Below, piece after piece: positions 1 to 971 of a stretch of DNA of 64,000 bases. Under the pieces are notes generated by a model, which did not search any database, was not told the DNA's origin, and saw only the letters and a list, made by a program, of their open reading frames with translations. Source of the DNA: Enterobacter phage vB_ECC_MY742. The stretch lies in the sequence record PV593737.1; one strand, given 5' to 3'. The position numbers were made by a program, and so were the translations under genes. Every line of letters starts with the position of its first letter. Positions within the stretch are counted from its first letter, which is position 1.

Positions 1-971
1 GTCTCGATATTAACAGTATGGCTATAGTTTGCATCAGACTCATTATTGTAAATGGTTTCTAGTGGCTTCCAGAGCTCAAGGAGATTACCTTCAAATTTCT
101 CAGAGGAATATGCCTCTAATACTTTCATGATGTACTCTGTTGACCCTGTACGTCCTGACACTTTAAATTGGGTGATACCAATATCACGGTAAAGTTTTAG
201 GTCCTGAGGACGCACAAAACGCGTGCGTAACCAGTTGAAAGGGTCGGTGTCTCGAGCTTTAATGCAGTGCTGCATTGGATAACCGTCGAGCGATTTTGCA
301 TCTTCTGCAGTAACGTCGGTACTGTGGAAAATATAGCAAGAATCGCGATAACTACAATGAGTTGTATAGCCTTTGCCCGCGTTAGAGCAAAATTCGTTAA
401 CAAGGACTTCAAAGATAATACCATTTTCATTACAGAATGCTGCGGCCTGCTTCAAGAAATTAACCGAACGGTTTTTATGAATACCACAACAAACTTTCTT
501 AATATTGTATTGGTCATGAAGATATTTGATTTGAGTAACAGCATCAACGTGCAGGATAGTTGATACCTCAATTTCAATTTCTTTATTCACTTCACGAACA
601 ATTTCCATTACTACCGGGTTAGCAATAGTAATTCGCCAGACACCAATTGACCATAGATATTGAACATATTCTTGAATGGCTGCTTTCTTCCATTCGGTGA
701 GTTCACGCTTAGTTCCTGGGTTAATGCTGTTCAACGTATAGTTAAAGCAAATGCCAAGTTCGTTACAACGACGAACATAAACTTCCAGCTCTTCATCTTT
801 TACATCAGGCAGACGGAAATCAGGACGAGCGGCGACAAATGCCATCGCTCGTGTACTTCCGTAAACTTCGTTAATCAGTGATTGCGGATTTTTAGCATTC
901 AACTCAACGATTTTATCAAGAAGTGCCAAGTCAAAATTCGTTCCGATTTTAAATGTATTTTGCATTTTCAT
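1..971 (-). CDS. U32 peptidase-family-like protein, N-terminal ~323 aa only (the ORF runs off the window start, which is why it is missing from the ORF track)
   Basis: Own translation of the minus strand from the ATG at 971-969: MKMQNTFKIGTNFDLALLDKIVELNAKNPQSLINEVYGSTRAMAFVAARPDFRLPDVKDEELEVYVRRCNELGICFNYTLNSI...EIEIEVSTILHVD...NEFCSNAGKGYTTHCSYRDSCYIFHS. There is no stop codon before position 1. The layout (FxR..EEL.E.YV...G..F.Y.LN, then GV..I.IANP, then I.VST, plus a Cys cluster) resembles the U32 family (RlhA, TrhP, UbiU/V). Confidence 0.45.
   Translation of the reverse strand, partial: MKMQNTFKIGTNFDLALLDKIVELNAKNPQSLINEVYGSTRAMAFVAARPDFRLPDVKDEELEVYVRRCNELGICFNYTLNSINPGTKRELTEWKKAAIQEYVQYLWSIGVWRITIANPVVMEIVREVNKEIEIEVSTILHVDAVTQIKYLHDQYNIKKVCCGIHKNRSVNFLKQAAAFCNENGIIFEVLVNEFCSNAGKGYTTHCSYRDSCYIFHSTDVTAEDAKSLDGYPMQHCIKARDTDPFNWLRTRFVRPQDLKLYRDIGITQFKVSGRTGSTEYIMKVLEAYSSEKFEGNLLELWKPLETIYNNESDANYSHTVNIE

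Follow-up and report, generated by a model that had tools for sequence, protein, structure and literature searches.

Location and reading frame of the U32 gene

The window analysed here is the whole stretch of 64,000 nucleotides from Enterobacter phage vB_ECC_MY742 (sequence record PV593737.1), and the gene under study, a member of the U32 family, lies on its minus strand at the left edge, next to a cassette of sugar-activation genes. An earlier note on this DNA, made from the sequence alone and giving no strand, had described a truncated open reading frame (ORF) at this edge; the frame 971..3 indeed translates into 323 codons without a stop and leaves the window at the left, and it was missing from the list of ORFs because it touches the window end. 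The note asked for upstream sequence to complete the frame, which is the wrong side of the gene: the absent segment lies on the 3' side, left of base 1, and comprises the C-terminal 67 codons, including an invariant C-x4-C-x3-C-x2-C motif (Cys341/346/350/353). The part inside the window holds the TIM-barrel U32 domain and the invariant residues Cys159, 193, 204, 210 and 234. All of the motifs quoted in the note were found in the translation, namely AARPDFR, EELEVYV, GICFNYTLN, GVWRITIANP, IEVSTI and C-x10-C-x5-C (CSNAGKGYTTHCSYRDSC).

The gene more likely starts at the second ATG, at position 965 (MQNTF...), than at the alternative in-frame ATG at 971, because the Shine-Dalgarno sequence AAGAG is separated by a spacer of 6 nt from the former (0 nt from the latter) and because MQNTF is the N-terminus in the RefSeq annotation and in all U32 homologues. 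(Note that residue numbers count from the ATG at 965.) The window protein is 100% identical at the amino acid level to gp147 (388 aa) of Enterobacter phage vB_EclM_CIP9 (Kanagawavirus, Straboviridae), hereafter CIP9, with a DNA identity of about 92% at the U32 gene; there are no amino acid changes, and 5.8% of the synonymous sites differ. Against its orthologues the ratio of nonsynonymous to synonymous substitution rates (dN/dS) is 0.03-0.05. The G+C content of the gene equals that of the window, and a hidden Markov model (HMM) match falls on window positions 3-1010. The gene is confirmed as real and as being under strong purifying selection, far beyond what chance would give.

Family assignment and predicted structure

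The Pfam model PF01136 (Peptidase_U32) matched the window fragment with 44.2 bits (cut-off 22.4) and the full-length CIP9 protein with 43.6 bits, and PHROG 5757 matched the fragment with an E-value of 7e-218. Comparison by hhalign with a profile of the E. coli proteins UbiU, UbiV, RlhA and TrhP gave a probability of 97.1% and an E-value of 7e-11 over 213 columns. The AlphaFold2 model, which like the analysis of invariant residues was built on 64 members of the U32 subfamily, reached a predicted local distance difference test score (pLDDT) of 92.8 and a predicted TM-score (pTM) of 0.91. Its best match in the PDB was the U32 protein Mk0906 (5d88; Foldseek E-value 1.8e-7, TM-score 0.66 on the target), the only solved U32 structure found, which shares 12% identity and covers the barrel only; the Foldseek matches after it were generic TIM barrels, and a phmmer search of the full-length protein against the PDB sequences returned nothing meaningful. 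Judged by profiles and by the modelled fold, the phage protein belongs to the U32 family at the family level, and in this respect the assignment made in the earlier note was borne out. An exhaustive profile search yielded 1,694 clusters at E-values up to 1e-3 and 472 at E-values up to 1e-30; the phage proteins therefore form a compact and distinct U32 subfamily.

Nine cysteines are invariant across the 64 members. Their pairing with characterised proteins was taken from hhalign, since a global MAFFT alignment with the E. coli U32 proteins mis-paired them. In the hhalign alignment Cys204, Cys210 and Cys234 pair with the UbiU ligands C169, C176 and C232, and Glu186 pairs with E161 of RlhA; Glu186, Cys204 and Cys210 are invariant or nearly so in the 64 members, with a C-x5-C spacing in place of C-x6-C. 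The surrounding pattern G-x-L-C...G-x-C is not kept in the phage protein. Residues E161, C169 and C176 are essential in RlhA and TrhP (PMC5727448; PMC6599085). A second invariant cysteine cluster, the C-x4-C-x3-C-x2-C motif mentioned above, lies at residues 341-353.

Gene cluster and earlier descriptions

The features at and next to the U32 gene are given in Table 1. Based on the maps of CIP9 and of phage AlbertHofmann, on the Pfam matches in the window and on an HMM table of 15 T4-like loci, the cassette is the arabinosyl-5-hydroxycytosine (ara-5hoC) cluster of Straboviridae (RB69 gp45-gp55 / HY126 Afh genes); the window covers it from the U32 gene to the polymerase gene and further. The coding-strand order in CIP9 is DNA polymerase, 175-aa ORF, SIS-domain arabinose-5-phosphate isomerase, nucleotidyltransferase/kinase, small phosphatase, U32, 79-aa ORF, ThyA-like gene, 299-aa gene, thymidylate-kinase-like gene and uvsX. 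The statement of the earlier note that the frame adjoins a sugar cassette is correct, as the nucleotidyltransferase/kinase and isomerase genes show. Its own refuting case, that the completed frame might be a known dCMP (deoxycytidine monophosphate) hydroxymethylase variant, does not hold, the hydroxymethylase-like gene being a separate one two ORFs further on.

Table 1. Features at the left end of the window
Position	Strand	Feature	Basis
1..965	-	U32-family gene, 5' end (first 321 of its 388 codons)	Orthologue of CIP9 gp147 and RB69 gp50
966..1018	-	Leader between genes, with Shine-Dalgarno AAGAG at 976-972	Direct sequence reading
1019..1423	-	134-aa protein at the position of RB69 gp51 / HY126 AfhF	Synteny and annotation; identity via orthology only
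1405..3096	-	Bifunctional nucleotidyltransferase/kinase, homologue of RB69 gp52:53 / AfhE	Pfam NTP_transferase; hhalign 100%
3272..3901	-	SIS-domain arabinose-5-phosphate isomerase, RB69 gp55-like	Pfam SIS; annotation; PMC13326640
3888..4415	-	175-aa ORF between SIS isomerase and DNA polymerase	

Neither the 134-aa protein nor the 175-aa ORF has a Pfam match; the latter is kept as 'hypothetical protein' in CIP9 (gp151) and in Kosakonia phage 305. Some of the RefSeq names in the CIP9 cluster look outdated, i.e. 'phosphoheptose isomerase' for the AfhF-type protein, 'thymidylate synthase' for the 5-hydroxy-dCMP (5hodCMP) synthase and 'peptidase' for the U32 protein.

The modified base of this phage group is arabinosylated 5-hydroxycytosine (5hoC), not 5-hydroxymethylcytosine (PMC13326640), and for this reason the C5-pyrimidine chemistry of U32 enzymes is the more pertinent here. 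The ThyA homologue RB69 gp48 makes 5-hydroxy-dCMP with a flavin cofactor and with oxygen from O2, as determined by 18O2 labelling, and this synthase together with a deoxynucleoside monophosphate kinase is sufficient for 5-hydroxydeoxycytidine (5hodC) formation in E. coli (PMC13326640). UDP-arabinose is provided by the isomerase, by an AfhE-type enzyme (arabinose-5-phosphate kinase as well as UDP-arabinose pyrophosphorylase) and by an AfhF-type arabinose-1,5-bisphosphate 5-phosphatase (PMC13326640).

The earlier note had held a U32 enzyme in a T-even hypermodification locus to be undescribed. This is not the case, as the gene is RB69 gp50 (NP_861740), an orthologue with about 88% identity in Mosigviruses that likewise lies between the phosphatase and the 5hodCMP synthase and that already appears in published cluster lists. 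[quoted passage not shown] A further paper mentions gp50 in its Table 1 alone, where it is labelled 'Sugar or heterocycle reductase' and given the structural match 5d88, and the Discussion cites the hydroxylation routes of RlhA and TrhP/TrhO without a tie to gp50 (PMC13326640). The BASEL record of phage AlbertHofmann names the U32 protein 'putative enzyme involved in UDP-arabinose biosynthesis'. In the searched literature, within which the newest accounts of 2025-2026 are only partly covered, no paper ties the chorismate mutase to U32 or to 5hoC, or puts forward an oxygen-free formation of 5hoC by U32. The presence of U32 in the cluster is thus already known, and the role proposed below appears to be new relative to that literature.

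Chorismate mutase and DAHP synthase genes

In CIP9 the 79-aa ORF, which lies outside the window, overlaps the U32 stop codon by 4 nt and the start of the synthase gene by 4 nt. It matched Pfam CM_2 with 40.9 bits (cut-off 27) and several NCBIfam chorismate mutase models, all under their equivalog cut-offs; residues R11, R28, K39 and S84 (PheA numbering) are invariant, and Q88 is nearly so, in 13 sequences including E. coli PheA and TyrA. By these profile matches and residues the ORF is identified as an AroQ chorismate mutase, and some GenBank records already label it as such. All phage records with this chorismate mutase (50 of 50) belong to T4-like phages, and the gene was located in the U32/synthase region in every checkable record.

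Fifteen T4-like and 45 non-T4 loci (viral or from metagenome-assembled genomes (MAGs)) were compared, with flanks of up to 10 kb. [quoted passage not shown] These fusions are DAHP synthases of 340-351 aa with a C-terminal chorismate mutase on the viral contigs L096, L098, L099 (= L039, L041, L042) and L062; they are shikimate-pathway auxiliary genes and always lie two genes from U32. A reading of the 'DAHP_synth_1' neighbours as 3-deoxy-D-manno-octulosonate-8-phosphate (KDO-8-P) synthases, given the KdsC-like phosphatase and the SIS isomerases nearby, was rejected because DAHP synthase models score 3-4 times higher and because of the four fused chorismate mutase domains.

Prephenate, the product of chorismate mutase, is the oxygen donor for UbiU/UbiV (PMC10990095). 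RlhA makes 5-hydroxycytidine with prephenate (PMC5727448), and TrhP is prephenate-dependent, O2-independent and redundant with the O2-dependent TrhO (PMC6599085).

In Mosigviruses an ORF of the same length as the chorismate mutase is present (AlbertHofmann L002:8167-8406, corresponding to the position of RB69 ORF049; L024:7155-7391). It was considered as a diverged chorismate mutase and rejected, with no NCBIfam match and an hhalign probability of 0.1%.

Occurrence in phages and genomes

Among phage records, 371 contain the 5hodCMP synthase and 221 contain U32. All of the U32 matches show at least 80% identity; the hosts of the phages concerned are Enterobacterales and Shewanella, both facultatively anaerobic. 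The synthase occurs without U32 in 57 Acinetobacter and 18 Rhizobium records; Acinetobacter phage AM101 has the same cassette without U32 or chorismate mutase, the phosphatase gene abutting that of the synthase, and Acinetobacter phage DLP3, for which this arrangement has been published, makes tri-arabinosyl-5hoC without U32 (PMC13326640). Within Kanagawavirus, CIP9 has both U32 and chorismate mutase and Kosakonia phage 305 has neither; both genes are also lacking in the Dhakavirus Bp7. In Kosakonia phage 305 (L009) and Bp7 (L008), which may be regarded as natural 'knock-outs', the phosphatase gene is followed directly by the 5hodCMP synthase gene. From the pattern in CIP9, phage 305 and Bp7 it follows that U32 and chorismate mutase behave as one accessory insertion/deletion unit. 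Since cassettes without U32 exist in AM101, DLP3, Bp7 and phage 305, U32 is not required for ara-5hoC and is an accessory rather than a core part of the cluster.

The U32 subfamily was detected in nine of 185,579 species genomes. Most genome matches were MAGs from anaerobic lineages, namely Erysipelotrichales, Gastranaerophilaceae, Oscillospiraceae, Tannerella, Phocaeicola, Angelakisella, Woesearchaeota and BRC1.

U32 in non-T4 cassettes

The U32 homologues of the non-T4 loci show 39-54% identity. Their neighbours include homologues of the AfhE-like enzyme of the window (hhalign probability 100%, E-value 8e-51; 19 of the 45 loci) and of arabinosyltransferase-1, i.e. CIP9 gp144 / RB69 gp46:47 (hhalign probability 99.6%; about 28 of the 45 loci); the profile of the family matching CIP9 gp144 had no match in the PDB. 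Further neighbours are KdsC-like HAD phosphatases, SIS isomerases, thymidylate-kinase-like genes, dCMP deaminase, dUTPase/DCD and glycosyltransferases that are TET-associated or of the GT47 type. The ThyA-like 5hodCMP synthase was found in all 15 T4-like U32 loci and, within the flanks, in none of the 45 non-T4 loci, one of which has a canonical ThyA. U32 is the only hydroxylase candidate in those cassettes, which need a hydroxylated base, and the gene content suggests that it fills the hydroxylase slot.

A conserved three-gene unit was observed on contigs of BRC1, Woesearchaeota, Tannerella, Phocaeicola faecalis and Angelakisella (L065-L069, approximately 3800-7100), in the order guanylate-kinase-like nucleoside monophosphate (NMP) kinase/S-adenosylmethionine (SAM) methyltransferase fusion (425-443 aa), PF17338 'GP88' protein (264-282 aa; Pfam match in four of the five loci) and U32. 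This unit could represent a nucleotide pathway of hydroxylation followed by methylation, leading to a 5-methoxy-pyrimidine. On the Logan contig SRR33454321_1371 (L012:8001-12267) the genes for U32 and for a TET-associated glycosyltransferase (Pfam TAGT) are translationally coupled, a dUTPase/dCTP-deaminase gene comes next, and a UDP-galactopyranose mutase gene is close by. The arrangement resembles a glycosylation cassette for a sugar other than arabinose that relies on the same putative hydroxylase. On two megaphage-like contigs with PolIII-alpha (L006:7447-9086, 466-kb JGI contig; L010:7504-9083, 60-kb ENA contig) U32 directly follows dCMP deaminase, with an overlap of 4 nt in L006, which hints that the substrate there is perhaps a uracil nucleotide.

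Comparison with characterised systems

RlhA (E. coli YdcP), the 5-hydroxycytidine-2501 synthase of 23S rRNA, shares the U32 domain with the phage protein, and hydroxylation of cytosine at C5 is the change needed for 5hoC. It depends on prephenate, on iron-sulfur (Fe-S) biogenesis and on the Glu and the Cys pair of the U32 motif (PMC5727448). RlhA is longer (653 aa, including a large extension at the C-terminus) and its substrate is a precursor of the ribosome, whereas the phage protein has 388 aa, the C-x5-C spacing, a C-terminal Cys4 cluster of its own and a place in a deoxynucleotide and sugar cassette. Identity to the phage protein is 22% for RlhA and 20% for TrhP, both from the global MAFFT alignment in which the cysteines are mis-paired.

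The pair TrhP/TrhO, which forms 5-hydroxyuridine (ho5U) at position 34 of tRNA, follows the dual logic proposed here for the phages, in that one C5-hydroxypyrimidine is reached both by a U32 route that depends on prephenate and by a route that depends on O2, and is kept in organisms that meet both oxic and anoxic conditions (PMC6599085). In the phages, by contrast, the O2-dependent partner is a flavin-bound ThyA homologue rather than a rhodanese, and the presumed substrate of U32 is a free deoxynucleotide rather than tRNA. UbiU and UbiV, both Fe-S proteins of the U32 family, take their oxygen from prephenate and stand in for the flavin monooxygenases UbiI/H/F under anoxia (PMC10990095). They act as a heterodimer on a prenylated phenol, whereas the phage U32 consists of one polypeptide that carries two candidate Cys4 sites; UbiU is its sole NCBIfam match, over 63 residues. 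The ThyA-like 5hodCMP synthase (RB69 gp48, DLP3 gp80 and the HY126 enzyme) yields 5-hydroxy-dCMP, the product proposed for U32 as well, with an unrelated fold, a flavin and oxygen from O2; its role is experimentally established, that of U32 is proposed.

Proposed function and alternatives

We consider it probable, on comparative sequence grounds and by analogy with RlhA, TrhP and UbiU/UbiV, that the U32 protein hydroxylates pyrimidine deoxynucleotides at C5 in a reaction that depends on prephenate and not on O2, and that in T4-like phages it serves as an anaerobic alternative to the flavin enzyme. The protein would be an iron-sulfur hydroxylase and not a peptidase, and would hydroxylate C5 of a pyrimidine deoxynucleotide, in this phage dCMP. 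The oxygen atom would derive from prephenate and not from O2, as in RlhA (5-hydroxycytidine in 23S rRNA), TrhP (ho5U in tRNA) and UbiU/UbiV. The resulting 5-hydroxy-dCMP would then be phosphorylated, incorporated into DNA and arabinosylated by the products of neighbouring genes. In T4-like phages U32 would operate alongside the ThyA-like synthase, which depends on flavin and O2 and whose gene lies two genes away, so that modified DNA could be made in a facultatively anaerobic host without oxygen, and the chorismate mutase encoded after U32 in this phage lineage would boost the supply of prephenate. The family membership, the fold, the conserved cysteines, the purifying selection and the neighbourhood patterns are results of the analysis; substrate, prephenate dependence and anaerobic role are what we infer. 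A mononucleotide is favoured as substrate because NMP-kinase neighbours recur and because these phages remove dCTP; in T4-type phages the dCTP pool is destroyed by dCTPase (RB69 gp28).

Several observations weigh against this proposal. The cysteine motif is altered, with its shortened spacing and a family-specific insertion that contains Cys193, and the PROSITE-type U32 pattern has no literal match in the phage protein; the candidate [4Fe-4S] ligands in the sequence are Cys193, 204, 210 and 234, the fourth being placed by inference only. The NCBIfam model for UbiU (NF047963) gave only a weak partial match (19.4 bits, cut-off 440; residues 98-160), and no RlhA or TrhP NCBIfam model matched; to judge from these searches, none of the characterised U32 proteins is orthologous to the phage protein. 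In Mosigviruses (e.g. RB69), the largest group, U32 is present and an unrelated 79-aa ORF replaces the chorismate mutase. Dhakaviruses and some Kanagawaviruses infect facultative anaerobes without having U32, which is thus not obligatory for this host range, and the contrast between aerobes and anaerobes is based on few independent lineages. The non-T4 contigs could encode a ThyA-type synthase beyond the 10-kb flanks. Finally, even with RlhA, TrhP and UbiU/UbiV the reconstitution of direct hydroxylase activity has yet to be achieved (PMC10990095; PMC6599085).

A hydroxylase of the U32 type that acts on another substrate, such as host or phage tRNA or rRNA, cytosine in DNA, dUMP or dCTP, is unlikely. 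T4-like phages carry their own tRNAs, and the coupling of U32 to dCMP deaminase in some megaphage-like contigs is a hint of uracil; little cytosine, however, is left in the DNA after replication, and dCTPase destroys dCTP. The characterised U32 enzymes of nucleic acids all act on RNA polymers (PMC5727448; PMC6599085), but the phage gene sits inside a nucleotide and sugar cassette, where it overlaps start and stop codons of its neighbours, and in unrelated phages it is repeatedly accompanied by NMP-kinase-like genes and by homologues of DNA glycosyltransferases. We regard as rather improbable that the protein is a redox helper, a 'sugar or heterocycle reductase' that for instance supplies Fe-S electrons to keep the flavin of the 5hodCMP synthase reduced. 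Such a role would agree with the label in Table 1 of PMC13326640, with the nine invariant cysteines, which fit two Fe-S clusters, and with the presence of the flavin enzyme near U32 in every T4-like locus. It would leave the association with chorismate mutase and DAHP synthase without explanation; moreover, all 45 non-T4 cassettes have U32 without a ThyA-like enzyme, phages of Acinetobacter and Rhizobium and Dhakaviruses use the flavin enzyme without U32, and the synthase and the kinase alone yield 5hodC in E. coli (PMC13326640).

There is little to recommend a place in the sugar branch, as an epimerase, a dehydratase or another step towards the activated arabinose donor, even though sugar-activation genes always adjoin U32, the fold is a TIM barrel whose Foldseek matches after 5d88 are generic sugar-handling barrels, and the BASEL annotation points to UDP-arabinose biosynthesis. 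U32 is dispensable for this branch because DLP3 lacks it and because AfhE, AfhF and the isomerase account for UDP-arabinose (PMC13326640); other Acinetobacter phages likewise poly-arabinosylate 5hoC by means of these sugar genes while lacking U32, and the conservation of U32-specific motifs and cysteines also argues against a sugar enzyme. That the protein is a true peptidase of the collagenase/PrtC type is hardly credible. The terms 'peptidase' and 'collagenase protein' occur in many records and in PHROG 5757, but this annotation derives from the family name, and the gene context is one of nucleotide and sugar metabolism. The U32 members with a defined cellular role are all tied to O2-independent hydroxylation (PMC10990095; PMC5727448; PMC6599085). 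The earlier note had suggested an additional or alternative modification chemistry rather than proteolysis, and the comparative evidence points to an alternative base-modification chemistry.

Significance

The pathway to ara-5hoC was resolved only in 2025-2026, and its hydroxylase requires O2. Gut Enterobacterales, the hosts of many of these phages, often grow in the absence of oxygen, and T4-type phages that destroy dCTP cannot revert to plain cytosine. The chances seem about even that this subfamily is the first of the U32 enzymes to act on DNA precursors, as an oxygen-independent hydroxylase of pyrimidine deoxynucleotides that uses prephenate, that it is the sole source of the hydroxyl group for DNA glycosylation in many uncultivated phages, whose hosts are probably anaerobes, and permits oxygen-free formation of ara-5hoC in T4-like phages, and that the associated chorismate mutase and DAHP synthase genes are auxiliary metabolic genes serving the supply of the oxygen donor.

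If true, a second hydroxylase that needs no O2 would account for the persistence of the modification under anoxic conditions. It would be the first case of a small-molecule nucleotide as substrate of a U32 enzyme, a practical gain as no U32 hydroxylase has yet been reconstituted in vitro. It would also give a reason for the shikimate-pathway genes in phages and indicate that a large number of uncultivated phages have hydroxypyrimidine DNA that is glycosylated. For therapeutic phages without U32, an oxygen-dependent host range or fitness would be predicted.

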